Translations under genes and position numbers: made by a program
Shown here: in pieces, positions 15,901-63,293 of the stretch
Layout: every line of letters starts with the position of its first letter
Numbering within the stretch: the first letter of the stretch is position 1
Origin: Cenococcum geophilum
Taxonomy: Eukaryota
DNA: 64,000 nucleotides
Assembly: GCA_050273025.1 (NCBI GenBank)
Contig: CP158635.1
Span: 16,926,001 to 16,990,000, forward strand
Reading direction: 5' to 3'
The notes under the pieces: generated by a model
Told to the model about the DNA's origin: nothing
Databases searched by the model: none
Seen by the model: only the letters and a program-made list of their open reading frames with translations

Positions 15901-16049
15901 TAACTAAGTCTATAATATATACCCTTTCTTCCCGTTTTCCTACCTTCTTTCCTTATATAACGTCTTGACTTTTTATATAGTTTATATATATAGCTTAATA
16001 ATATCTACCTTGCTATATATTATCGCCGCTTATAACTCACTCCGTAACA

Positions 16050-17813
16050 AATATTAAGCTACTAATTTATAAAGTAGATATATATAGAGAATAAAAGGAA
16101 GACAAATAGTAAGCTTTAAAGATTATTAGTTATAAGGATATTAACAATAAAATATAGTATAAGGTTAAGTAGATAGGCTATAATAAAACTACTTAGGAAC
16201 TACTAGAGAATCTAAAGAACGCTATAAGAAAAGTATAGGAGTATTAGAAGAAATTAGGTTAGGTAGTATTAATAAAAAAGGATTGCTAAAAAATAAGTTA
16301 CCTAAGGGGGACCTAAAAAGAGTAGTTGCTAAACTACTTAGATCTACTTCCTTCTTAGTTAAAAGAGAATCCGTTTTTTTATTACTAAGTTCCTATAAAC
16401 CTTATTCTATAAGTTTTTACTCCTTAAAGTATACCTTCTTATAACCCTTTTTAAGACGAAGTAACTAAGCGGATGCCGCAATATAGGCATTTAAGGCCCT
16501 CTACTCTATATTATAAGAATATTCTAACTTAGTAAGAGCCTAAAATAGCTTACTATTAAGATAAATAGCAGCGGATTAAATATAAGACCCTAAAATAAAT
16601 TAATTAGGGAATTAGACGACTATTAAAAGTAATAAGATACGTATATTTAGCATTAGAAGTAGAGCGGACGTTATAGGACAAATAAATATTCGCTTTAGTA
16701 CACTTTAAGTAAGAGGATAGTTGTTATAAAGATGGACTTACTAACGTAATATAAACTAACCCCTTTTTCGCATAACTAGAATACAGAGATAGTATAATTT
16801 CACCAAGTAATAATATTATAGCAACGGTATAAGTACAATATTAGGCGTATAAAGAAGAAGAAGCTTTAGGTATAATAAGTAATAATATTAACTAAATTAA
16901 TTAAACGGATATTATACCTCTAGTAAACGACTTAAAGATATTAAGGATCTTTAAGGACGAAGATAGAAAGGAGATAGTGTTATAAACGCTTTAAGTACAA
17001 TATTATAACTATTAGGAGAGGAGTTAGAAGCAGCTAGTTAGTTAATTAAGGCATAGTCTAAGATAAAGCCGATAGAACTATATAATAAGGAATAGTAGCT
17101 AAGGTTATATAATATGCTACGCATTAAACGGAAGGAATAAGAGGAACTTACGTACCTTATATATAAGGCATATATTATATATAAAGAGGATTTCTTAAGA
17201 GTGTGGTTATATATTTAAAGGACTATAGTCCCTACCTAGATAGTTCTTCTCTTTATAGTAAATCTTAGAATATAATTAATAATAATAATTCATTGCTTAA
17301 CGTCCGATTCGGATCCCTATTGGGCCCACGCGGACTACTCCTTATTTACATGTGGGGAGAAAACTCTATTTAAGAAAAATGAGAAAACCCCGTGATCCAT
17401 CTCCCCGCCTTTTGGGACTCGCCTGCTTAGCGCCTGTGAGTCGCCTATGGTGCTCTACTACCTTACTGTTTGACCTCCTTGGGAACCACTGCTGCCGTAA
17501 CAAGCCTACGGACGCGCTAGTATCACAAACTATTACTCTACTACTGTAGAGTTACTAGGGGGCACCTGCTGCTCGCCCCCTTGCCTTCTATTACCATTTC
17601 CCTTGCAACCCGGAACTGATTTAGCACATTTTGACTAATAAGCCACTGGGTGACCGCCTTGAGGCCTTTTTGTGTTGAGAATTAGAATATAATTAGAGTT
17701 AATCTATTAGGCAACCACTCTACTAGTTATTATTATGTTATTAACTTCTTATTTACCTATATACCTAGCCTATTAATAAGTCTACCGTAGTTCCTGCTAT
17801 AAGGCTTCGTTAT
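16050..17813 (+). mobile_element. Gypsy-B remnant: chromodomain, 3' region and 3' LTR (16978-17813, interrupted by a LINE fragment)
   Basis: Matches the reverse complement of 32884-34250; PPT-like GAAAGGAGATAG before TGTTAT at 16978. Confidence 0.85.
17279..17681 (-). mobile_element. 5'-truncated Tad1-like LINE (ORF2 C-terminus, 3' UTR and (TTA)n tail)
   Basis: 14-bp TSD TTAGAATATAATTA (17265-17278, 17682-17695). Minus strand reads ...KGLKAVTQWLISQNVLNQFRVAREM..., resembling the ORF2 end of the LINE near 31620-31720. Confidence 0.82.
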
Positions 17814-32883: not shown

Positions 32884-35800
32884 TGTAACGGAACCTTATA
32901 GCAGGAACTACGATAGATTCTGTTAATGGGCTAGGTGTATAGGAAATGCAAAGATAGTAGTTAGAACGTAGATAATAACTAGTGGAGTGGTTGCCTAACA
33001 GATTAACTCTAATTGTATTCTAAGAATCACTATAAGGAAGGAACTATCTAGGTAGGGACTAAAGGTCCTTAAATACATAACCGTACTCCTATAAAATTCT
33101 TCTTATACATAATATACGTCTTATCTATATTAAACGTGATGTTCCTTTTATTTAATGCAGCTAATATGTTTAACCATTATATAACTTACTTACTATTCCT
33201 TATTATATAGTTCCACGGGTTCTATTTTAGTCCGTGCTTATATTAACTAACTAGCTTCTTCCAACTCTTCTCTAAGTAGTTATAATATCGTACTTAAAGC
33301 GTCCGTAATACCATCTCCCTCCTCTTTATTTTCGTCCTTAAAGATACCTAGCATCTCTAAGTTGTTTACTAGAGGTGTAATATCCGTTTAATTAATTTGG
33401 TTAATATCGTTACTTATAATACTTAAAGCAATTTCTTCTCTCTCCTAGGTTAAGCGCCGCCTTTATACCGTCTCCTTAATACTATTACTAGGTAAAGTAA
33501 TAGCAATTTCTTGCTCTTATTATGCAAAAGAGGGGTTAAGTTATGTTGCAATCGCGAGTCCTTCTAGTTGCTAACCTTCCTCTTGTTCTAAATATACTCG
33601 CGCTAATATACATTTATTATATAACGTTCGTTCTGCGTCTAATACTAAGTATACGCGTCCTATTACTCTTAATAGTTTTTAAGTTCCCTAAGTAATTTGC
33701 CGTAGGGTTTTATATTTAATCTGCCGCTGCGAAGCTTAATAGTGAGTTGGCCTCTGCGCTGCTTAAGGTTTAACATGCCTTAAAAGAGTCCGCATGTGTC
33801 CTTAAAGCTTAGCGTCTAGCTTATGCTTATCTTTAGCGTTTAGAACGTGTTTATAAGAAAGTTTATTTAAAGGAGTAGAAGCTTATAGAATAAGGTCTAT
33901 AAGAACTTAGTAATAAAAGAACGGATTCTTTTCTAATAATGAAGGAAACAACTCTAAGTAGTTTGGCAGTTGCTCTTCCTAGGTCCCCCTTAGGTAGTTT
34001 ATTCTTTGGCGATTCTTCTTTATTAATATTACCTAACCTTTTCTCTTCCGATACTCCTATACCCTTCCTATAGCGTTTTTTAAATTTTCTAGTAGCTTTT
34101 AGATAGTCTTGTCGTAGCCTATCCACTTTACTTTATACTATATTTTATTGTCGATGTCCTTATAACTAACAATCTTTAAAACTTACTATTCGTCTTTTTC
34201 CTATTCTCTATACGTATCTACTTTATAGACCGGTGGCTTAACATTTCTATATGCTAGCTCTAGTATTGCGATATATTATATAGGGTAGATCTTTATCCTA
34301 GCTAGTAGGTTTAACTTAAATATAACTAGTGAAATTCTCTATGTAATTTTAAAAGGTCCTAGTCTGACGTAGTCTAACTTCTTACTTGGTTGTTAACTTT
34401 TGAAATTTTTATATAGTAGCTATACTTTATCTCCCTCCTTAAGATCTGGTCCCTTAGATCTCTTAGCATTATAGTACTTTTTTATTCTTTACTGTACTAC
34501 CTTAGCTGTTTCCGTAAGGTTTATATAAAGATTCATTAAAGTCTCTATTCTCTATTTAGCTCTGCTACTTGTTTTCTTTACTTAATATAGTAATAATAAT
34601 GTTCTTAGCTTATATCTATAATTCGCCTTAAATAGTAACGTACCTATTCCTTCTTGTGGTGTTATATTATATGCAAACTATATAACTAGTAATAGCAATA
34701 CCTAATTGTTCTATACGTGATTAATATAATGCCTTAAATACTGTTCTAGTATCTAGTTTAATCTTTCCGTTTAACCGTCTGTCTATAGATAATATATAGT
34801 AAAAGTTACTGCTCGAACTCCTTGTTCCGCCAAGAATACCTCCTAAAATACTACTACGAATCTTAAATCTCTATCCGATATAATTTTACTTAATACTCTA
34901 TATCTTACAAACACTTCTTTAATATAGATTCTAGCAATATCTTCCGCTGAGATTTCTTCCGTATAGGCTATAAAGTATCCCTATTTCATAAGCTTGTCTA
35001 TTATTACTAAGATTATATTATAATCTTATCCAGTAATAGGATCTCTTAACTTTAGTAACTTAATAATAAAGTCCTATAATATAACCTCCTATAGTCTCTC
35101 TAGTGTTTTAATAGGTTATAGCCCTCTATATAGCTTATACCTTATTAGTTTATTTCTTTAGCAATCTAGATATTCTTTAGTAACTTTTTTAGCTATTCTC
35201 TAGATTCCGTTAATAATATACTCCTCCTAGAGTCTTAACACTAAGCCCGTAGCTCTATTATATTCTTAAGTTAGTCCCTTATAAAAGTCCTCTATAAACT
35301 ATTCTGCTATACTTCTTAGGATATACCTTACTTCTTAATTTTCGTATATATCTAACTATAGATCTTTTAGCTATGCTTCTAGAATTCTTTATACCTAAAA
35401 GCTTTTTAGTGTCTCATAGACTTTCTTTAACTTATTCTCTTAAGTTACTATAATCTTTGGATAATTATACCTAATTAATCCGTCTATATCTTTTCGCAGT
35501 AAAGCCCCTAATAGCTTATCGTTATTTTATAGTTTAGCCTTTTAACTTAACGCATTAGCTTACATATTGTTTATACCCTTAGTATACTAAATCTCAAAAT
35601 AGTATTCTATAAGTATCTCTACCTATCTAACCTACCTTTAGTTAAGTTCCTTTATCATTAGGAATCCTATTAGGTTCTTATAATCCGTTTTAACTATAAA
35701 TAGTTTTTTTATACCTTATAAAAATGCTCTCTATTTCTTTAATACTATAACTATACCTAACAACTCCTTATTATAGATGTTATAGTTTAACTCTAGTAGT

Positions 35801-38800: not shown

Positions 38801-40920
38801 AAGAATCTTAGTCGTCTCTTATCTTACTATAAGAATCTTAAGCCTTTAGCCCTTTACCTTTATTAAGTGGTAAGCTAGCACTAGCAGTTATCTACTTGCT
38901 TAATCGTTTCTAAATATTACTTCTTCTATCTTATAAAGTAATAGATACCGTATCTAATAGTGTTATAATACCCGTTACTAAACCTTGCTCTATAGCGGTC
39001 TTAGTCTCTACTTCTATTACATTATTAAGGTTTAGATACCCCCAGTTAGTTCCTTTACTATCCTTATTACTGTTAATTAATAAATATTCTAACTCCATTG
39101 TTATTATTACTAATTATTATCCGCACATTACTATAATATCTTAATCCAGCTTATAGAGTCGATCTTATTCTTTATTTAACTCTTTAGTTTCTCTAAGTCC
39201 TTTTAACTCTAGCTCTTACAGCCAATAGCTTACACCGTACTTAGCGTCTTTATAAATTCGGTATACGTTATTGTAATAAAACGTAAAACTTTTAATTAAA
39301 TATTTTTTTGTTCCTTATAGTATACTATTATCCCTCTATACGTGTGTGTTATATACTATTAGTCTAGTTCCTTTTATTACATAGTAACTCTAACTATCTT
39401 TATAATCCCTCGCGAAGTAACCTTGTTTTTTGTAATTTATATAAACTCCGTCTCTAAACTATTAACTTTATTATAGAGTCCGCCTAAACATCTTCTACTA
39501 TTAAGATCCTTAGTTCGGCCTCTACTCCTTAGTCCTATAATTACTAAATCCTTAACCTCTAGGTTTTTATAGTTTCTTACTTTATCTCTTATAGGCTTCT
39601 TTAGTACTACTTAGGTCCATTAGCTTTGCGCCATACTATAGTTTTTAACTTAGCTTTGGTTATTGCGTACTCTACGCCTTATATAACTATAGAACTCTAT
39701 CCTAGCCTCTCTTAGCCTATTCCCTTTAGAAGATCCTATTATTAATCTTAATCGCTTAATCTATTAATTCCCTTAGGGTGTCCGCATCTTCTATTAGGAT
39801 AATTACGTCCTAGACTTTAGCCTTAAGTCCTTATTTATACTATGCCATAAGCGCCTTATTGTTCTACTCGACTTATGTTGTAAGTATTTAAAACTATATC
39901 GTGTACTTAATTGCTGAAGTTCGCTATATTAGGTCCTAAAGCTTTCTCTCTACTATAGTTGTTGCTTTTAGGTCTTTAAATATCTATATTAATCGTTCCA
40001 CGAATCCTACCTAGCTAGAAAACACAAATTATACCTTTTAATTAGTAGTAGTTATTCCGTTAGTCTATATTTCTATTAAGTAGGGTTTAAACCATTTAAG
40101 TGCTTAACCCGTTAGGAATAGTCCTGCGTAGGCTATCTGGTCTATTATTATGGCTAACTTAGCCCCTTCTTATATAACTTTAAAATACATCTGCGTTAAA
40201 AATCCTTTAAGCTTTAATCTCTCCCCTAAGAATCGTTTAATTAAAGGTAACTTAACCTTTGCTACTCTAATCCCGTTAAGTCTATTCTTAAGTATTATAT
40301 TATTCTCTATTAATTAATCCACTATTTCTTATAATTGTCCTACTATCACAGGTTATTGCGAGTTAGTATCCGCTATACTAGTGTCACCCCCTAACCTTAA
40401 ATTAGTTGCCGCCGTCAATGGCGTCGTAGTAGCTACTTTTAGTAGCATATTATTTAACTTTTTGTATTTAATACTATAACCAGGTAGTAATTGTGTAACG
40501 GAACCTTATAGCAGGAACTACGATAGATTCTGTTAATAGGCTAGGTGTATAGGAAATGCAAAGATAGTAGTTAGAACGTAGATAATAACTAGTAGAGTGG
40601 TTGCCTAATAGATTAACTCTAATTATATTCTAAGAATCACTATAAGGAAGGAACTATCTAGGTAGGGACTAAAGGTCCTTAAATACATAACCGTACTCCT
40701 ATAAAATCCTTCTTATACGTGATATACGTCTTATCTATATTAAACGTGACGTTCCTTTCGTTTAACGCAGCCAATACGTTTAACCATTATATAACTCGCT
40801 TACTATTCCTCGTTATATAGTTCCACGGGTTCCATCCTAGTCCGTGCTTGTATTAACTAACTAGCTTCTTCCGACTCTTCTCCAAGTAGTCGTAATATTG
40901 TACTTAAAGCGTCCGTAACA
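32884..40920 (-). mobile_element. Gypsy-B, full-length chromovirus on the minus strand
   Basis: 427-bp LTRs 32884-33310 and 40494-40920; TSD CCTAT; PPT complement CCATCTCCCT at 33311; minus-strand gag knuckle (~39430), protease VDSG (~37290), RT, RNaseH, integrase and chromodomain remnants. Confidence 0.94.
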
Positions 40921-42702
40921 CCTATATACGTATTAATTAAGCAACTAAGTCAATAATATATACCCTTTCTTCCCGTTTTCCTACCTTTTTTTCTTATATA
41001 ACGTCTTAACCTCCTTATATAGTTTATATATATAGCTTAATAATATCTATCTTACTATATATTATCGTTGCTTATACTCACTCTATAACACTACGTTACA
41101 TTAACTACCTATACTACTATTAATATATAGAATAAACCTATAACGGCCGCCGGTATTATATTCGCACTTTAAAAATAATTAGTAAGGATATAGAAGTCTT
41201 TTATAGACGCCCTTAAATAGAACTAAGCTACTTTAAATTAATAATAAGCTAAATAAGAAGCATAATACTAGCAATTAATTAAGGACCTCTAAGAAGAAGT
41301 CCGCGCCCTTAAAATATCCACGCTAGGACCTTAAGACTAAACGCTATCTCTAGAGATAAACACGCGGAACGTAAGCCCTAAACCTATAATAGCCACTTAC
41401 CTTAAGCCGACTACTATACTAAAATAATCTAAATAACTACTAAATCCCCTAGTATTTACTAGTAAATAATAAAAGCTCTAATTATTTCTAAGCTAGCTTA
41501 AAAATAAGCTAACTAGTAATGCTAACTATTACCTAACTAAAGCTAATCGACTCTATTACGCCCTAAGTTAACTAGGAGGAGATATAGCTAACCTTATTAA
41601 ACCTCTTTAGCTAAACTTAATATAAAGCCTAGTTATACTTCTTAAAGCTATATATAGTAACCTAAACTACTAAGCTACTTCTTAAAGAAAGATAAACTAT
41701 ATAACTTAAGAAACGAAAAGTTTCCTAGTATACTTCTCTAAATTTAACTATTACGCAAAGGAAATAGGCTAGAACAACTCTATACTAATTAATAGCCTTA
41801 TTAAATCCCTAAGCCCTAAACTAAAAACCTCTCTAATAGGCGTAGACCTACTAAGAGCCCTTAATGCCTATATAAACGTTATTAATAAACGATATAATAA
41901 TATACTACGCCTAACACCGAAGCCCACTCCTTAATACAATACGGCAACCCTATAAACGTCTACTAAGTTATCGTCTTAGCTTAAGCACCCTAATGCTATA
42001 GATATTAACACTAGGACCCTAGGGTACGCCCTACTAGGGTCTTTTAAATAAGAATAACGCATTAAGCTAGGTCTCTACTTTAAATATAAAAGTAGCTCTT
42101 ACCTCTCCAATTACTACTCCGCCCCTATACCTAAACACAATTTATAAACGGCTAACACTAGCAGCCGTTTACCGTATCGATCTTCTAGTTACCGTCCCTA
42201 ATCTCTACCTAGTTCTAGCCCTGCATCTAATAAGCACTATTTATAAGGATAAAGCTATAACTAACGTCCTATAAAAACCCTATCCTAATTACCTCTAAAA
42301 GGAAGGTCTTAAAGCTAAGTCGCTCTTTAGGACGGCTCTGCTATAGGATTTTATTAAACGTATTTAACGTTATAAACTCTAACTCTTAGAACCGTAGTAT
42401 AACTATTAACTACTATCTTTAGTAAAATAGTTAATAGGCTAATATTTAAATCCTAATTAATATAGGAGCTAGCGGTATAGGATTTATTAACAAAATCTTT
42501 ATATAAGATAATGGTTTTATTCTAACCCCCCTTAACTAGCATATTAACGTATTTAGATTTAATAGTAAACGTACCATCTTAGGCCGTATTACCCACGTAG
42601 TATTCCTAAAACTCTAATACCTAAGCTACGAAGAATTAATTAAACCTTTTATTACCACCCTAGGTTACTTAGTAATCCTTAAACCCTAGATAAAGCTATA
42701 TA

Positions 42703-43724
42703 GTAGTAGTAGTAACTCTTTAATTAACGTCTAATACGGATCCTATCTAGGCCCACGCAGACTACTCCGTCATAGGGGGAAAACTTATAGTTTATATGAA
42801 GAAAACCCTGCAGTTAGGGGAAGGAAAAACCCTATAAGCCACCTCAGTCGGATAAAAAACCCCAAATTGCCATATTTGCACGTAGTGCGGCCCTATAGGC
42901 CTACAGCTACATCCTCCTCCTTAGATGTTTTGAACTCCTTAAAAACCACTGCTTCCTTCTCTAGCTTATCCAAAGCTAGGGTTCACTACGTCCTAGCTAG
43001 GCCTTGCTAATCAATTGCCGTACGCTTATAGTTATATCCCGTATCTTAACCACCCCCTATATACTATCTCTTATTAACCATTATTAATACGCCTTACCTT
43101 CCCCCCTCTAAGGCCTATTAAAGGCGTAAGGGGGATTTATCCGTTCTACCATCCTAATACTAAAAGACGAAAGCGGGATGTGTGTGTGTATATATTTAGG
43201 TATCTTTTATACCTAAGCCCTAGTCACTAGGCCCTCTCTAAGGGCACCACTCTATTAAGAGGAGATAAGGAAAACCGTATGGGGTTATCTAGCTGCCTTT
43301 TAGTAGTATTACGGTAGTACGGCGAGTGACCACATGCTCCGCGGGCGATCGCCCTAGGGGTTAGGAGGGGCCGTATATTTGCTCGTTCGTTCGTTCGCGC
43401 TTATCTGTTCGTTAATATAAGGTCATTAATACTTTCTATTGGGGTTTTTTGAGGATATTATCGAAAACTGCTCATCTATGTTGGATTGTATAGGTGCCCT
43501 AGATAGAACAGTGTAGTAGTTATCGTATTGTAGAGGGCCAACAGTAGTAGTTTTCAAGATCTCACTATCCGAAAAATTTTCACCACCACCCTCGACGCCC
43601 ATAACCACCACTAGGTCCTGTCCGCACGCTATACAACGTCTCTGCGTTGGCTCTGGATCTGAACTTCAAAGACTAGGTTTGTAGCCGTCACCACGTACAG
43701 GTGCAGAGTCCGATTTCGACGGCC
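42703..43724 (-). mobile_element. Non-autonomous non-LTR retroposon (SINE/SIDE-like) with ribozyme head and LINE-derived tail
   Basis: 14-bp TSD GATAAAGCTATATA (42689-42702, 43725-43738); (ACT)n tail; 3' ~250 bp similar to the LINE fragment at 17279; no long ORF. Confidence 0.88.
43640..43724 (-). ncRNA. HDV-like self-cleaving ribozyme (predicted)
   Basis: Minus strand: P1 GGCCGUC/GACGGCU with G1-U wobble; P2 CUCUGC/GCAGAG; P3 ACC/GGU; L3 UGUACGU; P1.1 GU/AC; P4; J4/2 G-CCAAC. G1 abuts the TSD. Confidence 0.85.
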
Positions 43725-46700
43725 GATAAAGCTATATAAGGTAACTATTAATTAGAACAACCTTAAGCTTCTATTTACCGCCTCCTGTTATAAGCAGAAG
43801 TGCCTTATAACTTACTACTTAGACCTAAAACTAAAATCTAAAAAATCCACCAGGATCTACTAGTCTAAAATTTCTATAACTGTCCACCTTATACCTAAGG
43901 ATTCCACCAGATTCCACCAACTTAGGAATTCCACTAAATTTTACCAACGTAAGATTTCCACTAATGCTTACTTTACGCCTAAGAATTCCACCGATATCCA
44001 CTAAGGATCCGAAAACTCTACTAAATTCTATAAGTTATTACTAAGTACTATACTACCCTAAGCTAAGCAAAAGCTTAAGCTCTATATATAAAAATATTAA
44101 AAGGACTAGTATCCTACTATAAAAAGGATTCTTAAAGAACTTAAACCTAAATCTAGTACTAACTCCGTACTTAATACTAAACCTAAACCTAAATAAGAAA
44201 CTATAGATAATTCAAGCAAGCTTAGTACCCTAGATATCTATATAATTAGAGCTACCCCACTAGCGCAACTTGCTAAAAAACCCAAGTATACAATCTTTGC
44301 TGTTATAATAGCCGATATTAAAAAGGCCTTAGTACTAAAGAAGTATATTAACCCTACTATAAAGGTACTAATAGAGTATTATTATCGCCTAGATGCGTTC
44401 TTATAAAAGGAAGCTAATAAGCTACTAGAATACCAACTATATAACCATAAGATTATACTTAAAGAAGAAAAGTAGCCCGGATTTAGACCCTTATATAAAA
44501 TGTTCTAAAATAAACTCTAAGTACTATAAAAGTATTTAAACAAGAACCTAAGTAAAGGATTTATTAAAGTAAGCTCGTTATCTATAGCTATATTAGTAAT
44601 CTTTATTAAGAAACCTAGCGGCGGTCTATACTTCTATATAGACTACTAAGCTCTTAACGCTATTACCGTTAAGAACTAATATCTAATCCTATTAATATAA
44701 GAGATGCTAAACTGACTAAGTAAGGCTCGTTACTACACAAAGCTTAATATTATCTCTATATTTAACCGTCTCTATATTATAAAAGGGGATAAATAGCTTA
44801 CTGCATTTCATACCTAATATAGACTATTTAAGTACTTAGTAATACCCTTCGGCCTTATAAACGCTCTAAGCTCGTTTTAATATTATATAAATAATACCCT
44901 ACGCCCCTACCTAGATATCTTCTATACTGCTTATATTAATAACATCCTAATATATAGTAATAACCTAACCAAATATTAGAAATACGTTAACTTTATTTTA
45001 TAAACCCTACACGGAGCTAGTCTATAATTAGATATAAATAAATATAAGTTCTATAAAACGGAAGTCCTATACCTTAGACTCCTTATTTCTATAAATAGTA
45101 TATAAATAGACTTAAAGAAAGTTAAAGTAATTATAAACTAGCAAAAACCTGAGAATGTTAAGGATGTAAGAGCCTTTATAGGATTTACTAATTTCTACTA
45201 ACGGTTTATTAATAACTTCTCCGCCCTAGTTTCTCCCCTTATAGCTTTAACCTAAAAGGATAAAGTCTTTATCTTTAATAAGGAATATAAGAAGGCCTTT
45301 ACCTATTTAAAGGTTATATTTACTACTGCGCCTATACTCTAATACTTTAACCTAAACTAAATAAGTGTTATAAAAGCCGACTTATCTAACTACGTTACTA
45401 AAGGCATTCTATCTCAATATAATAAGGATAGAGTATTATACCCTATAGCATACTTTTTAAAATGACTAAGCCTAGCTAAATATAACTACAAGATCTACGA
45501 TAAGGAATTATTAGCTATTATTAGATATTTTAAACAATAGTAACCTAAACTAGAAGGCACTAGATTTCTAATTAAGGTCCTTAGCAACTATAAGAACCTA
45601 TAATACTTTACAACTACAAAATAGCTAAGTTATTATTAGGCCCGCTAGTTAGAATATCTATTTTATTTCTAATTCTTAATTACATACCACCTAAGCGTCT
45701 AAGGTTAGAAGCCTAATACCTTAACCTAACACTTATAAGACGCGCTAGCCCTAAAAGAAGCGCGCTCTTACTAAAATTAGACCCTACTTCGCCCTAAACT
45801 ATTTAACCCTACTAAAGATCTTACGGTATACGTCCTTAAAATAACTAATTAATTAATTAAACAGATTATAGTTAACGAATGCCTAAATAATAAGTTTATT
45901 TAAGAGACGCTTAAGCTAATATAAGATGGCATTAGATGCTTTAAAAAGATTTCTTTAAGTAAATATAAAGCCTGTGGAAACTGCTTATATTACTAAAACC
46001 GTCTAGTTATCCCTAATTATAATAAGCTTAAGCTTAAACTCCTTAAACATATATATAATCTACCTATCGCCAGCCACCTAGGCTAAGAAAAGACCCTAGA
46101 ACTACTCTAATAGGAGTATTATTAGCCGAATATATATAATATAATATAAAGGTATATCTCTAGCTGCTATACCTACTAATAAGCTAAAGTCTCGCATAAG
46201 ATATATAACGGTCTTTTAAAACCGCTACCTGTTCTAAACTAAAGATAAAAGGATATTTTAATTAACTTTATTATTAACCTTCTTAAAAGTAAAGGCTGTA
46301 TAAATATTATAGTAGTTATAAACCAACTATCTAAAATAAGACATTTAATCGCCTGCCCTAATATATTAACGCCTAGCGTTACCTAACTATTCCTAGATTA
46401 CGTATAGAAACTCTATAAACTCCCTAAAACAATTATCTCTAATAAAGGCAGCTAGTTTATCTTAGCATTCTAGAAAAAAACTTACTACTTAACTTTATAT
46501 TAAAGCACTACTATCTACTATATATTACCTAAAAACGGATAGTTAAACGGAATGTGTAAATATTATAATAGAATAGTATATTCGGATATATATATTGTAT
46601 TTATAGGATAACTAGATTAACTAGCTCGTATTTACTAAGTTTACTATAAATAATTCCGTTTTAGAAACTATAAAAGTCTCCCTATTCCTAGCTAATTACG

Positions 46701-49700: not shown

Positions 49701-50439
49701 AAATCCAGATTAAAGCCGGCGATAAGTAGAAAACGGCGTTCTAAATATAGTACGGCCACTTTAAGTACCTAGTAATGCCATTTAGGCTTACTAACGCACT
49801 AGTGATATTTCAGGCCTATATTAATAAGGCATTATCGGGCCTGTTAGACACAATATATATAGTCTACCTTAATAACATTATAGTCTACTCTAATAACTAC
49901 GAAGTATATACGTACTACGTGCGAATAGTACTAGAAAGACTACGGGAATATAAGCTCTATATAAACCTAAAAAAGTGCACGTTCTATACTACTAGCATTA
50001 ATTTTTTAGGCTTTATCGTCAGCGTTAACGGAATCGTCAGGAAAACAAGAGAGTGGTAGGGGCTAGCTAGGGGCTGGCCCAGGGCTAGCCTGGGGTCATT
50101 TTAGCTGGATCCGCTGATCTGCTTATATACACTTTTTTACACTAGCCCCAGGCCCCATTAGCAATATTAGCAACATTAGCAACATTAGCAATATTAGCAA
50201 TATTAGTAATATTAATAATATTAATTTTAAAAATTATAATATATCTTTTTACTATAATATTTTCTATAACTGCAATATTTATATAGGAATAATAATGGGT
50301 TTTAAATTTTAAATTTTAGTTATTAAGCAATTAATTAAAATAAGTAGGAAGCCTCTTGCAGAGGCTCCAAATCGTTAATTAGCGATATTCCTGACGATCT
50401 ACCGGCCGTGTACTGATTTCCTAACTAGGCCTAGCACCC

Positions 50440-50635
50440 GCCTACCTATCTGCCTGCCTACCTACCTACTTACTTGCCTGCCTACCTGCCTACCTACCTA
50501 CCTACCTACCTACCTGCCTGCCTGCCTGCCTACCTACCTACCTACCTACCTACCTACCTACCTGCCTGCCTATACCTATCTATGCCTACCTATATATGCC
50601 TACCTGTCTATACCTACCGTCTATATCTATCTATA
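50440..50635. repeat. (CCTA/CCTG)n microsatellite
   Basis: Direct inspection. Confidence 0.9.
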
Positions 50636-50742
50636 GTATCTAATTCAATTTGATTTGGTAGCGGGCTAATATCGAGGCTCTGGTTCGATTCGATCGATCG
50701 ATTAAGTCGCTCGTGGTGTTGCTGACTGGTTGTTCGAACGAT

Positions 50743-51256
50743 CGTCGTCTAGTTCTGGCGACGGTCGTCTGGTCCTGATGACGGTCGTCTGGTTCTGATG
50801 ACGGTCGTCTAGTTCTAATGACGGTCGTCTAGTTCTGGCGACGGTCGTCTAGTTCTGGCGACGGTCGTCTGGTTCTGGCGACGGTCGTCTAGTCCTGATG
50901 ACGGTCGTCCTGATGACGGTCGTCTAGTTCTGGCGACGGTCGTCTAGTTCTGGCGACGGTCGTCTAATTCTGGCGACGGTCGTCTGGTTCTGGCGACGGT
51001 CGTCTGGTTCTGGCGACGGTCGTCTGGTCCTAATGACGGTCGTCCTGATGACGGTCGTCTAGTTCTGGCGACGGTCGTCTGGTTCTGGCGACGGTCGTCT
51101 AGTTCTGGCGACGGTCGTCTGGTCCTGACGACGGTTGTCTGGTCCTGACGACGGTTGTCTGGTCCTGACGACGGTCGTCTGGTCCTGATGACGGTCGTCC
51201 TGATGACAGTCATCTAGTTCTAGCGACGGTCGTCTGGTTCTAGCCACAGTCATCTA
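50743..51256. repeat. 20-bp tandem array (GACGGTCGTCTRGTTCTGGC), ~25 units with occasional 15-bp variants
   Basis: Head-to-tail units without unique spacers. Confidence 0.92.
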
Positions 51257-53429
51257 CTAGCTGCCGTTGTAGTGCCTCCCTAGGTAGAGAGGATGGAAGG
51301 AAGGGTAAAAAATAAGTGGTATTTAGGTGTATAAGGGGTATATAAAGACACGTAGAGGCTGCTAGGAATATAGTGGGGACCTAATAGCACTGTAGGCCGC
51401 TGTTAGAACGATTAAGATAACCAGGAAAATTAAAGTCCTACTAGGAGCCTGCTAGGAAGCCTGCTAGGAGCCCGCTAGGAAGCCTTTAGGATTTTAATAC
51501 CCTAATAGCAATAAACGTAATAATAGTAATAATGTTTATTTTATAGCTATAAGTTAGCATAATGCTAGCGTATAGCTCTAGGGCCTAGCTAATATGGTAA
51601 AAAGCTGGCGTAGAGCGCTAGGGGGCTAGCTAATATGGCGGAAAGCTAGCGTAGAGCTTTAGGGGGTCAGCTAATATGGCGGAGAGCTAGCCCTAGGCCC
51701 CAAAAACACTTTTAGCGAAACTAAATTTCATACGCCACCCCCCGTTTTCCTGACGCATATCAATAGAGAAAAGTCAGGTAGACGCTATTAGGAAATAGCC
51801 CTACCCTATAATATTTAGAGAAGTATAGGTTTTCTTAGGCACGGCGAACTTCTACTAAATATTCATTATTTACTACTTACAAGTAATACTCCCAATTACC
51901 GATCTACTAAAAGGATCTAAGAATGGCAGGAAGTTAGGACCCTTTATATTTAGGGAAGCTGCTAAGTAGGCTATAGACCAGTTAAAGGATTTATTTATAT
52001 CGGCGCCTATCCTAATATACTTCTACTAGGAGCTATATATATACCTTAAAACGGATATATCCGGCTTTGCCCTAGGGGCAATTATATCTTAATTAAAAGA
52101 CGGAAAATGGCATCCTATAGCGTTTTAGTTAAGGAAAATAACCCCTATAGAGCAGCGTTATATAACGCACAACTAGGAGCTGCTCGCGATAATCGCAGTA
52201 ATAAAGTATTAGCGACATTATTGTATGGGAAGCAATTATCCCATTAAAGTCCTTACAGACTATAACAACCTAGAATACTTTATAACTACGAAGGTGTTAA
52301 GCGGTCGATAAGCTAGGTGGGCAGAGGCACTATTATAGTACGATTTTAAGATTACGTACCGCCCAGGAAAGATAAATCCTGCTAATAGGTTATTAAGACG
52401 TCTAGATTACGAGATAGGGAGGATCTAGGACAGCATAGGGGAAATAATCCCTATATTGCAAAATTTGCTTAGGAAGAAAGAAGACTCTTTCCCTAGAACT
52501 ATAGAATTTCGCGGCAGGGCAGAGGTCCCGGCGATATAGCTACGAAGTAATATAATTATAGAGCCGCAGGATATAGTTATAGACTAGGTTATAGACCAAG
52601 CAGATATTACAAAGTTAGCGTACCCCAGAATTAGCGAGAATTCTACGGGATATGCTAGAGGTGTCGCGGCACCTTTAACTTAACGGCGTATTAGCTACGA
52701 GTTCTCGGATCTAAGGGGGATAGGCGAGATGCCTATCTATAGCGTGGCACACTGCATAACGGTAGGAGAATCTGCTAGCACTAATAGTTTAAAACGTCTC
52801 GTGCTACGCCTTAAGTCTATAATAGCGGCAGGCGAAATAGAAGCAAGCGATCTATATAAAACCTTTCTAGATCTTCTTCTTTAAGCTTAATAAAGGGACG
52901 CCTTCGCCTCTAGGGAGAGGTAGAAAGATATAGTGGAGACTAACTTGGCTAGAGTTACTAAGAAGCTATAGCAGCAAGACTAAAAGGGTTTATTGCGCTT
53001 TAAGGGTGCTATATATATCCTAAAGGACTAAGCAATTTAAGACGAAATTCTAAAGGTCTTCTATAACGACCCTTTTAGGGGTTACTATAGTGCCAATAGA
53101 ACCCTTAAGGCCGTTTAAAGAAAATAATTTTAGGACGGAATGTCTAAAGAGGTTAAGGACTATATATTAAGGTATAATACGTGCCAAAGGATATATATAT
53201 CTAGGCATCGCCTATACGGCGAGTTATTAGTGCTTCCTATTCTATAGGGACCCATATTAGAATTAACAATAGATTTTATTACAGGCTTACCCCCTACTAA
53301 GATAAGAACTAGAGAAGTTGCTAACGCTATCCTAGTAATTGTTAATAGGTATATAAAGTTTTCAGGATACTTTGCTGTTATAATAACGATCACAGCAGTA
53401 GAACTGGCAGACCTGTTTTTAGAACGGTG

Positions 53430-57327: not shown

Positions 57328-58098
57328 AAGACCCTCCCCTACTAGTTAAAGTAGATAGTAAGAACGAGTACTTTATTAAAAAAAATTAATAATATTAAGT
57401 ATAATAAACGGAAACGCTAATATATATATCTTATAAAATAGAAAGGCTTTACTAAGTCCTTATGGGAACCTATTAACTCTATAGGACTTATATAAGCCAC
57501 AGAAGACTTTTATAAACTTTACCTAAAACTACTATAGCCCTATTTCGTAGAAGCTTAAGTTTAAAGGGGGGGTACTATTATAGGGCACCCCTATAATACC
57601 TTATATATATTTACCTATTTCCACTAATTTAGCAATTAGAGACCAACCGTAAAATAGCAATTTAATGGCAATCTAATGGCAATCTAACGGTAATTTACGG
57701 CATTCTATTAAGTTCTACTAGGACTATAACCTAAACCCTATTCTACCTATATATGTATTAACTAAGCAACTAAGTTAATAATATATGCCCTTTCTTCCCG
57801 TTTTCCTACCTTCTTTCCTTACGTAACGTCTTAACCTCCTTATATAGTTTATATATATAGCTTAATAATATCTACCTTGCTATATATTATCGTCGCTTAT
57901 ACTTACTCTATGACAATAAGCTTAATTGCTAGCTATTGACCGTGCTAAGTATATTGACGCGTGATAGTTTAAGACGTTTAATGCAGAACAGGAACAGGTT
58001 AGGAAACGTGGTCGAAGATATAGGGGTAGTAGTGGTACGTGCGTAGGTGTCACGGGACGAACGTACATGGGTAACTCCCGTGACATAAAGCCTCTATA

Positions 58099-58524
58099 AC
58101 GTAGTCGGCAAGCCTATGGGCCATGCAAGCCTGTGGGCCATATTAAAACCCCACTAAAAAATAGAAAACCCACACCTTAATCTTAACAACCACTAAGTAA
58201 TAAATTCTAATAATGTAGATTTAGACTTTTATATATAGTCTATAGCTTCTATTAAAGTTGCATTGTAAATAGTTTAGTAGTTTTTAAGATATTAAATTTT
58301 AGGGGCCAAAATAAAGCTATATTACTATATCTCAAAAACTACTAAACTATGTACAATATAACTTTAATAGAAGCTATAGAGTATATATCAAAGTCTAAAT
58401 CTAAATTATTAGAATTTATTACTTAGTGGTTGTTAAGATATTAAAGTATAAATTTTCTATTTTTTTTAGTGGGGTTTTGATGTGGCCCACAGGCTTGCAT
58501 GGCCCATAGGCTTGCCGACTACGT
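58099..58524. mobile_element. Palindromic MITE (Tc1/mariner-pogo/Fot1-like ends)
   Basis: ACGTAGTCGGCAAGCC... / ...GGCTTGCCGACTACGT with TA on both sides; arms of ~190 bp around a short loop. Confidence 0.9.
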
Positions 58525-59256
58525 TAATACGGTTAACGATAAGGCAATTAAGACTTTAAATTAAAGATAAGGTAGTAGATAGCTCGGGCTTATAACTATC
58601 GTACGGATAAGTTATTAAGGAGAATTCTATTCCATTATAAGAGGCTCTAGAGCCTCACTATATATACTAAATAGATGGCAAAAGGCTAACGACGACGATC
58701 TATAATTGCCACCATGGACGTCGCTACTTAGTTGGTATAGGTAATAGAAATAGGTAATAGAAATAAGAGTAAGACATACGATGGCAAGAAATAGGGTTGT
58801 GAGTCATAAGGTGGTGTACCTGACAGTGACCTCGACTGTCGACATGTTGCGCTACATTCTAGAACTTTTCACTCCACATCTTGTGCCTTTGAAACGTGGC
58901 AAAGCAATTGGGCATTTGATTCTCTGCGAAAGCTGTGTCGTGATTATTCTTTATTCTTGCTTCTCCTTTCTTAGGTTGAAGACGTGTGGCGAAGAATTTA
59001 GTTGGTGAAGAAGCGCCAGGATTTTCACGTGCCTCACGGCGTCATGGCCAATCAGCCTCAAGAGTCATGTGCTGCGCCCTCTGCCTCCCAAAATAACATC
59101 ACAAAAAGTATGATAGATCTGTCATCCGTCGCGCTATATGAAAGGTGGCATATCTTTCACAGTAGTTCATTCTCCGCTTCACACAAGTTTCGTACCTAAT
59201 AACTCCAAACGGTCGTTTCAACTCCCACTATCAAACAATTTTCGACCTCTATCATC

Positions 59257-61479: not shown

Positions 61480-63293
61480 ATGGCAGGAATATTTGAGCAA
61501 CCCCGAAATGCTGGCACACTCTGTATGTATCCTCCGCCCAAACAGGGTACATAGGCTAATAGAGCATCACAGTCCTCGGCGGCCAGAAAGTGAGTGGACA
61601 AGACATCCGCGACCAAAATGTCCTCGCAACACAAGCAATCGCCAATGTGATAAAATCCTCCTTTGGGCCCTCGGGTCTAGACAAAATGATGGTCGACGAT
61701 ATCGGCGATGTCACAGTCACCAACGACGGCGCCACCATCCTCAGTCTGCTGGATATTGAGCACCCTGCAGGCAAGATACTAGTTGATCTCGCGCAACAAC
61801 AAGACAAGGAAGTCGGAGATGGCACAACCTCTGTTGTGATAATAGCGGCGGAGCTCCTGAGGAGGGCGAACGAGCTTATGAAGAACAAAATACATCCTAC
61901 TACGATTATTACGGGATACAGGCTGGCGTTACGAGAGGCGGTGAAATATATGAACGAGAATATTAGCACGAAGGTAGAGAACCTGGGACGGGAGAGCCTG
62001 ATAAGTATTGCCAAGACATCCATGTCTAGCAAAATTATAGGATCGGACTCGGATTTCTTCGCCAACATGGTTGTGGACGCCATGCAGTCTGTCAAGTCTG
62101 TCAACAACAAGAACGAAGTCAGATACCCTGTCAAGGCTGTGAATATCCTTAAAGCACATGGAAAGAGCGCCACGGAATCAATATTAGTCAAGGGCTATGC
62201 ACTGAATTGCACCGTCGCCTCACAAGCCATGACTACGCGGGTTCCAGACGCTAAAATTGCTTGTTTAGACATAAATTTGCAGAAAGAACGGATGAAGTTG
62301 GGTGTGCAGATTACAATCGACGATCCGCAACAGCTCGAGAAAATCCGCGAACGGGAAGCCGGTATTGTAGTCGAGCGTGTGGAGATGGTCCTCAAAGCAG
62401 GTGCCAACGCTGTCTTTACAACCAAAGGAATTGACGAGCTATGCCTAAAGCTTTTTGTCGAGAAAGGTGCTATGGCCGTACGGAGGTGCAAGAAGGAGGA
62501 TTTGCGCAGGATAGCAAAAGCGACAGGTGCCACACTTGTCTCCTCGCTCTCCGATCTCAATGGCGACGAGAAGTTTGAGCCGTCATTGCTAGGTCAAGCG
62601 GAAGAGGTGGTACAGGAGCGTATCTCGGACGATGAATGTATTCTCGTTAAAGGCACGAAAGTACACTCTTCTGCCTCTATTATCTTGCGGGGTGCCAACG
62701 ACTACTCCCTTGACGAGATGGAACGCTCCGTCCATGACTCTCTCTCCGCCGTGAAACGAACCCTTGAAAGTGGACGCATAGTGCCCGGTGGTGGTGCCGT
62801 TGAAACTGCGCTACACATCTACCTAGAAGAGTGGGCAACCTCTGTAGTAAGTTGACTCCCTGTAATCCCTTAAATGCCAGGCTCTAAATCAAACAAGGGT
62901 TCTCGCGAACAACTCGCCATCGGCGCTTTCGCCCAATCCCTCCTATCCATCCCGAAAACGCTCGCCGTCAACGCCGCCAAGGACTCGTCCGAGCTAGTTG
63001 CGCAGCTACGCTCCCGACATGCACTCAGCCAGCGCACAGCCGACGATCCAGCCGCAACAACAGACCAAAAAGCGCTTGCCCGCTCTAAGAACTACAAGAA
63101 CTACGGACTAGACCTCGTGAACGGGAAGGTCGTTGACGAGATCAAGGCGGGCGTACTAGAGCCATCTATGAGCAAGGTGAAGCAGCTGAAGAGCGCGGTT
63201 GAGGCATGTGTCGCTATTATGCGAATTGATACACTGATTAAGCTGGATCCGGAGGAGAGGGGAAATCCAGATGACGATGGGCATGGGCATTAG
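61480..63293 (+). CDS. CCT1: T-complex protein 1 subunit alpha (CCT chaperonin); exons 61480-61522, 61573-62846, 62898-63293
   Basis: [47 protein letters not shown] motifs; canonical introns join the ORF-track pieces. Confidence 0.96.

Follow-up and report, generated by a model that had tools for sequence, protein, structure and literature searches.

A predicted hepatitis delta virus-like ribozyme at the head of an abundant non-coding retroposon family in a fungal genome

A stretch of 64,000 nucleotides from Cenococcum geophilum (contig CP158635.1, positions 16,926,001 to 16,990,000; hereafter the window) carries on its minus strand, at positions 42703-43724, an insert of 1,022 bp that is probably a transition-mutated copy, of the type expected from repeat-induced point mutation (RIP), of a high-copy, non-coding fungal retroposon of about 1 kb without long terminal repeats (non-LTR). 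Sense-strand transcription of the element is shown by strand-specific RNA, which is confined to the element, and the first ~85 nt of the RNA are predicted in silico to fold into a double pseudoknot like that of the hepatitis delta virus (HDV) ribozyme. In the mechanism proposed here, this pseudoknot would cleave immediately 5' of the first base of the element (G1) and remove upstream RNA, and each RNA, hence each new copy, would begin at the same G with the whole ribozyme. A 3' module of ~45-65 nt, which the element shares with a long interspersed nuclear element (LINE) designated LINE X, would be recognised together with the trinucleotide-repeat tail, in trans, by the reverse transcriptase of an apurinic/apyrimidinic endonuclease (APE)-type LINE of the LINE X kind, and target-primed reverse transcription (TPRT) at AT-rich sites would generate the 13-15-bp duplications that flank the copies. 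Because the head is absent from LINE X, the element appears to be a composite of a ribozyme, a unique body and a LINE tail.

The insert lies between two copies of a 14-bp target-site duplication, GATAAAGCTATATA, at 42689-42702 (3' side) and 43725-43738 (5' side), both evident from the sequence and the former also from empty-site joints in DNA contigs, in which positions 42681-42684 are fused to 43725-43726 (five contigs in DNA run X1 and two in X6). Two DNA runs thus contain uninterrupted copies of the host repeat, and the insertion is therefore considered real. Read on the minus strand, the insert ends in ...GACGTTAATTAAAGAGTT(ACT)4, and from 5' to 3' it consists of the predicted HDV-like ribozyme (43640-43724, element positions 1-85, a double pseudoknot drawn by hand); a non-coding body (42769-43639) with no conserved sense open reading frame and with many G>A and C>T differences from other copies; the 3' module in common with LINE X (42724-42768, GGAGTAGTCTGCGTGGGCC..GGATCCG.AT.AGACGTTAA), which is the presumed recognition site of the reverse transcriptase; and a terminal tail of subtype A (42703-42723, TTAAAGAGTT(ACT)4), which reads TCAAAGAGTT(ACT)n in less-mutated copies. 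There is no stop-to-stop frame of at least 90 amino acids on the sense strand of the insert and no reverse transcriptase; no tRNA was found in it by ARAGORN, and no tRNA, 5S, 7SL or snRNA was matched in it by Rfam even at E <= 10. An earlier reading of the window from its sequence alone (the sequence-only reading) had described the insert as 1,022 bp long and flanked by a 14-bp target-site duplication, with an (ACT)n tail, no reverse transcriptase and no tRNA or 5S head, and this description was confirmed by inspection of the sequence and by the reading frame, ARAGORN and Rfam checks. The window copy has no Rfam ribozyme match at the gathering score or at E <= 10; a few weak matches to other families (LPR10, mir-252, snoR12 and two viral pseudoknots, with E from 0.75 to 6.7) were taken as chance.

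Only one copy of the element was found within the window, both by blastn self-comparison and by a covariance model of the head (next best match, 7.9 bits). Compared with contigs of run X1, this copy differs by A>G at 49 places, T>C at 41, C>T at 28 and G>A at 21, and by each other kind of change at no more than five places; since its differences from other copies are mostly transitions, it is regarded as a RIP-like mutated member of the family. The window as a whole has the character of a eukaryotic nuclear region rich in AT-rich, transition-degraded repeats.

Further copies were gathered from metagenome contigs by means of a 22-nt core taken from the head, which yielded at least 121 loci (contig loci carrying the core are designated L0xx). 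Among the matches listed, to which the counts of heads and copies in this paragraph refer, all heads start at the same G (GGCCGTCGAAA[T/A]CGGACTCTGCACC...) and are preceded by unrelated DNA; the upstream sequence is distinct in each of the 119 heads that have at least 25 nt of flank. Fifty heads have at least 1,150 nt of sequence downstream (not counting L067, which shares its contig with L068, nor two heads truncated by the end of their locus). The tail motif is present at 920-1,038 nt in 45 of the 50, and no LINE was found behind the head in any of them. The other five comprise L080, which is full but heavily mutated, L054 and L074, which are interrupted by nested insertions of 2.9 and 5.6 kb, and two that are cut at 904 nt (L038) and at 182 nt (L021). 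Exact duplications follow a short (ACT)n or (ATT)n in 36 of the 45 tail-bearing copies; 35 of these are 11-19 bp long, mostly 13-15, and one is of 8 bp, and in several of the nine copies without an exact duplication the same duplication is visible with transition mismatches. Identity among copies ranges from 81 to 100%, with L047 and L020, which occupy different sites, being ~100% identical over 1 kb, and the less-mutated copies have no conserved sense open reading frame in common. For organisms A and B, the DNA runs contain 5,709 and 4,715 contig pieces, respectively, that align to the element (summed contig depth being no copy number), and 19 and 14 contigs exit exactly at 43724 into unlike sequences (consensus agreement 0.47 and 0.44). 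With its variable target-site duplications, its (ACT)n or (ATT)n tail and its lack of terminal repeats, the element has the features of a non-LTR retroposon mobilised by TPRT. The sequence-only reading had proposed a search for ~1-kb copies with distinct duplications, of which there are many, and had named the existence of only one ~1-kb copy, a one-off internal deletion of a full LINE, as a finding that would speak against it, a case that is excluded by at least 119 independent insertion sites.

Transcription of the family is evident from stranded raw RNA reads of organism B (run X24), in which all bins outside 42670-43749 have zero depth and depth inside the element reaches 4,878 versus 45 on the two mate orientations, which fits minus-strand RNA in the usual library type. 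Coverage in metatranscriptome X15 is confined to the element, and small shares of matching words were found in six metatranscriptome runs, X15 included. Of 10,352 RNA reads, 9,276 lie only partly on the mutated window copy, and their loose ends, where readable, are the same sequence without the transitions. That an abundant, transcribed, non-autonomous retroposon family exists is about certain.

In both order and spacing, the helices of the head follow those of HDV ribozymes. P1 is formed by element positions 1-7 (GGCCGUC) with 36-42 (GACGGCU), that is 43724-43718 with 43689-43683, and is closed by G1.U42; P2 is formed by 17-22 (CUCUGC) with 80-85 (GCAGAG), or 43708-43703 with 43645-43640; and P3 by 23-25 (ACC) with 33-35 (GGU), or 43702-43700 with 43692-43690. 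Loop L3 is UGUACGU at 26-32 (43699-43693), P1.1 consists of G27-C44 and U28-A43 (43698-43697 with 43682-43681), P4 is a hairpin within 49-72 (43676-43653), and J4/2 reads AG-C75-C-A-A-C, with the candidate catalytic C at 43650. Cleavage is predicted between 43725 and 43724. Across 89 distinct heads, 97.6% of cells are paired in the drawn structure, versus 28-44% when the partners are slid by 1-3 columns. Within this family, designated family 1, double changes occur only in P4 (three pairs, 33 cells), and the P4 helix is kept in subfamilies in which its loop is deleted (CUGAG-ACUU-CUCAG, CUGGAU-CUU-AUCCAG and CUGAGU..ACUCAG). The C at element position 75 is nearly invariant (at least 90% of the 89 heads) and is kept in two diverged heads, described next, and the base after it varies (CCAA, CUAA, CAAA).

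The two diverged heads were recovered by a covariance model that encodes P1, P3 and P4 only, without P2, P1.1 or J4/2, and that gave a single match in the window and 86 across 79 loci, these two included. The head at L057:983-1111 (49.5 bits) has P1 GGGCUCC/GGAGCCC, L3 UCCACGC, P1.1 CC/GG, an unchanged P2 and J4/2 AG-C-AAAC. The head at L041:7-122 on the minus strand (17.3 bits; E 0.13 in one search and 0.026 in another) has P1 GCCCGCG/CGCGGGU, P2 CUGCAC/GUGCAG, P3 GCG/CGC, L3 UCCACGU, P1.1 CC/GG and J4/2 G-C-CAA. Compensatory changes are thereby found in P1, P1.1, P2 and P3 across three head types, including both of the pseudoknot helices that lie outside the model, and P1 is closed by G1.U in family 1 and in the L041 head and by G-C in the L057 head. 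The L3 (UCCACGC) and P1.1 (CC/GG) of L057 resemble those of the canonical HDV ribozyme. L057:983-1997 on the plus strand is a third, diverged subfamily, with an element of ~1,015 nt, an approximate duplication and a tail ..AAACGTTAATTAAGAATT(AAT)n; the L041 head is situated right at the end of its contig.

A structural descriptor of the fold was also applied, with a 7-bp P1 starting with G, a 3-bp P3 abutting the 3' strand of P1, an L3 of 6-8 nt starting with U, a 2-bp P1.1, a 6-bp P2 abutting P3, C-N-R-A before the 3' strand of P2, and a 4-bp closure of P4. It gave 89 matches in 809,772 bases searched on both strands, namely 87 family-1 heads and the two diverged heads, and none in the reversed sequences or in any of six dinucleotide shuffles. 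It is very probable, and well supported in silico, that the head folds as an HDV-like ribozyme; the ribozyme that had been placed at the head of the element from the sequence alone thus gains support for an HDV-like fold from the compensatory changes in the two diverged heads.

The likely partner of the element is represented in the window by a 5'-truncated copy of LINE X on the minus strand at 17279-17681, which comprises the last ~400 nt, ends in GACGTTAAGCAATGAATT(ATT)n and is flanked by a 14-bp duplication, TTAGAATATAATTA, at 17265-17278 and 17682-17695. Uninterrupted copies of the repeat that hosts this fragment are found at 40582-40653 and 32972-33043; the host repeat is degraded and has copies at 32884-33183 / 40494-40793 and, inverted, at 16049-17253. 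Along its whole length, the fragment is similar to 3' ends found in several loci (87.5% between window positions 17273-17671 and positions 5655-6051 of L022), and LINE X, traced upstream from these matching ends, has a full length of ~5.57 kb. RVT_1 was detected in all four LINE X copies scanned (E 2e-14 to 1e-9), with a sub-threshold Exo_endo_phos_2 match upstream in the same frame in one of the four. The assignment of 17279-17681 to a truncated LINE in the sequence-only reading therefore holds, given its own duplication and the existence of full-length copies with RVT_1. That reading had also asked whether an autonomous LINE shares the tail and whether it starts with the ribozyme: an autonomous-type LINE with the same 3' module was found in LINE X, and its 5' end is not the ribozyme of the element. 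This end is sharp, G/AGAGCTCTT[G/A]CT[G/A]CACC..., in five of five full-length copies, and its sequence (GGAGCTCTTGCTGCACC...) gave no descriptor match. In L022 (minus strand), ~9 A's stand between the upstream duplication and the first LINE X base and may be an untemplated addition at the 5' junction.

Collinearity between the 3' part of the insert and 17279-17681, as noted from the sequence alone, is real but modest, amounting in blastn to 70% over ~110-115 nt plus 74% over 50 nt, with the strongest conservation in the blocks GGAGTAGTCyGCGTGGGCC, GGATCCG, GACGTTAA and GCAGTGGTT..AAGGAG. Between the 1-kb element and LINE X in general, similarity is limited to the last ~110 nt (70%) and a 41-nt block, with none in the body. 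The well-kept module within this shared 3' end, roughly 45-65 nt long, reads GGAGTAGTCyGCGTGGGCC..GGATCCG.AT.rGACGTTAA, and its outer stem is GUCUG/CAGAC in the 1-kb copies versus GUCCG/CGGAC in LINE X, a difference of one compensatory pair. There are hints in these sequences that the stem-loop of the module may be recognised by the reverse transcriptase. Two tail subtypes occur, A (the (ACT)n form, which includes the window copy) and B (GCAATGAATT(ATT)n), and subtype B ends in the same GACGTTAAGCAATGAAT as LINE X. The duplications of LINE X are 13-14 bp, agreeing in length with those of the 1-kb element. Because the module is shared, the subtype-B terminus is the same, the outer stem is compensated and the duplication lengths agree, LINE X or a close relative is most likely the supplier of the copying machinery, more firmly for subtype B than for the subtype A of the window, and it is likely that the element depends on machinery of the LINE X type.

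A number of observations weigh against this account and bear on its alternatives. With respect to the fold, no head matches the HDV-type families of Rfam (e.g. RF00094 and RF01787) at the gathering score; the family-1 head has no Rfam match at E <= 10, the L041 head has none, and the best match of the L057 head, from its second base (984), is to drz-agam-1 at 15.7 bits (E 0.75) versus a gathering score of 37. The nested minimum free energy of the head is no better than that of shuffled sequences (z -0.59) by a method that is blind to pseudoknots. The descriptor was written after the sequence had been seen, and the window copy fails its P4 rule because G>A at 43674 gives an A.C mismatch at the base of P4. 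Columns 21-42 (P3, L3 and the 3' strand of P1) are invariant in family 1 because the search pattern fixed them, and covariation in these parts comes from the two diverged heads only. The ends of RNA molecules accumulate at 43712 (304 molecules), 12 nt into the element from its predicted end; given these ends and the partial reads, the RNA data, which establish transcription, do not separate cleavage from precise initiation. The latter would produce the uniform 5' end if the head were a conserved RNA or DNA structure with some other role, such as an internal RNA polymerase II (Pol II) promoter or initiator, a site for a LINE protein, or a translation or stability element. The position of the RNA ends and the lack of Rfam matches at threshold are in keeping with such a role, as is the 5' end of LINE X, equally sharp without any such fold, and the HDV-like region of R2 is described as also binding the R2 protein, with action like that of an internal ribosome entry site (IRES) proposed for HDV-like ribozymes (PMC6765202). 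However, compensatory changes in four helices, both pseudoknots included, point to an RNA fold and not to a DNA promoter, and the fold, which starts at base 1, has all elements of the HDV class in their proper order as well as an invariant C in J4/2, so that a head of this other kind is regarded as improbable.

With respect to the partner, the loci were chosen through the head, and for this reason the counts of full-length copies and the near-absence of 5'-truncated ones are biased. No open reading frame of at least 120 amino acids is present in any of the four LINE X copies examined, so that LINE X is a putative source of working reverse transcriptase. The subtype-A terminus of the window copy, TCAAAGAGTT(ACT)n, differs from that of LINE X, and in the ~0.8 Mb searched no LINE with a subtype-A terminus occurs and the only orphan tails are those of LINE X. 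A true short internally deleted element (SIDE), derived by internal deletion from an unsampled autonomous LINE that has the same head and a subtype-A tail and of which LINE X is a relative, would fit this difference in termini; the search space was small and selected through the head, and R2 SIDEs are reported to have arisen by internal deletion (PMC3414825). Such an origin is nevertheless unlikely, since none of the 50 heads considered above runs into a LINE, no other head was found by the descriptor in the bases searched, the body has no similarity to LINE X beyond the 3' ~110 nt, and the three diverged head types are on, or (for L041, at its contig end) consistent with, short elements. The single copy within the window would also suit a LINE with a one-off internal deletion, or a similarity due to chance; that possibility is negligible in view of the independent insertion sites, the common length and tail of 45 of the 50 heads, and the thousands of contig pieces on the element in the runs of two organisms.

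The favoured composite of ribozyme, unique body and LINE tail fits none of the established classes exactly. Like a classical short interspersed nuclear element (SINE), it is non-coding, shares its 3' end with a LINE and is flanked by target-site duplications. It falls outside the classical SINEs, since a head derived from an RNA polymerase III (Pol III) gene is lacking, be it tRNA, 5S or 7SL (ARAGORN, 0; Rfam, none at E <= 10), and subfamilies that lack the P4 loop, the sole B-box-like stretch, have still been amplified. It is not a strict SIDE, in which both ends come from an autonomous LINE, because an origin by internal deletion was tested against LINE X, which is unlike the element at the 5' end and in the body. 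The sequence-only reading had drawn an analogy to the R2-derived SIDEs of Drosophila; the analogy stands for the way of working and falls for an origin by internal deletion from LINE X, and it is functional only because LINE X has neither a ribozyme start nor a shared body. The term minimal parasite, used in the same reading, is an overstatement for an element with ~870 nt of non-coding body between head and tail. By analogy, the element would work like a hybrid SIDE or NARTc.

The R2 SIDEs and R2/R1 hybrid SIDEs of Drosophila (Eickbush & Eickbush 2012, PMC3414825) are described as non-autonomous elements with a 5' HDV-like ribozyme and a LINE 3' end that are mobilised in trans, as is proposed for the fungal element. 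The hybrids consist of an R2 ribozyme and an R1 tail with 14-bp duplications, and thus resemble the fungal element in that ribozyme and tail have different sources. In that description the SIDEs are rare, located at rDNA sites and visibly derived from LINEs, whereas the fungal element occupies at least 119 dispersed AT-rich sites; unlike them, it has a ~870-nt body unrelated to its partner LINE, and no parent of its head was found. NARTc of Trypanosoma cruzi is likewise described as non-coding, dispersed and LINE-dependent, with an HDV-like ribozyme in its first ~77 nt that cleaves at +1 (PMC3185411). The NARTc ribozyme (Pr77) is reported to be almost identical to that of L1Tc (PMC3185411), whereas the 5' end of LINE X differs from the fungal head. 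Among fungi, Eg-R1 / Egh24 of Blumeria are also abundant non-autonomous non-LTR elements without A or B boxes, and their class is described as poorly characterised, probably transcribed by Pol II and having a conserved 5' region (10.1101/242271). Compared by description, Eg-R1 / Egh24 end in poly(A) signals and not in a trinucleotide tail, and the account of them drawn on here mentions no ribozyme (10.1101/242271).

At the level of the ribozyme itself, the order of helices is the same as in drz-agam-1 (RF01787), and P3/L3 of L057, ACC-UCCACGC-GGU, aligns to ACCUCCuCGuGGU of the model. Unlike drz-agam-1 and other HDV-like ribozymes, family 1 has an unusual L3, UGUACGU, and a P1.1 of G-C/U-A instead of two C-G pairs. 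HDV-like ribozymes are described at the heads of R2, L1Tc, RTE and baggins, where they free RNAs from co-transcripts, and the use of ribozymes by LINEs and SINEs is presented as known in metazoans in a 2019 review (PMC6765202). In a literature search that was thin on subscription journals and did not include Repbase or Dfam, HDV-like ribozymes turned up on no fungal element of the non-LTR or SINE-like type. A minimal HDV-like ribozyme is said to occur in a Trichoderma species, for which the literature search gave no support. Elements of this kind are known from flies and trypanosomes; this one is set apart by its fungal host, its high copy number, a body without relation to the partner LINE and a head that this LINE lacks.

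A fungal, high-copy, transcribed family of this build would extend the ribozyme-headed strategy to another kingdom and would present the ribozyme as a portable 5'-end module that can be joined to an unrelated LINE tail. A testable account of how fungal SINE-like elements without Pol III promoters propagate would follow as well, and the three head types provide a small set of natural variants that shows covariation in an HDV-like fold whose L3 and P1.1 are unusual. More tentatively, the family may represent an undescribed class of fungal ribozyme-SINE that is promoter-independent, in which the 5' end would be set by HDV-like self-cleavage and not by a head derived from a Pol III gene, the head would have been acquired independently of the partner LINE, and LINE tails would have been switched between subfamilies (A, B and the L057 type). 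In that case, it would supply a mechanism of general scope for SINE-like elements outside the Pol III system, which are poorly understood and abound in some fungal genomes.

A CCT/TCP-1 chaperonin subunit gene is the only one in the window that is evidently intact; it is split by a short intron into segments at 61563-62855 and 62874-63293 on the plus strand, which match Cpn60_TCP1 at profile positions 1-393 (E 8e-130) and 393-488 (E 2e-23), respectively. Short tandem arrays occur at 1-330 (18-nt period) and at 50412-51296 (8-, 12- and 20-nt units of CCTA/CCTG type). Nested inverted repeats at 58097-58526, in which 72-nt arms (93% complementary) enclose 113-nt arms that are 94% complementary and separated by 34 nt, could form a hairpin or be related to miniature inverted-repeat transposable elements (MITE-like).

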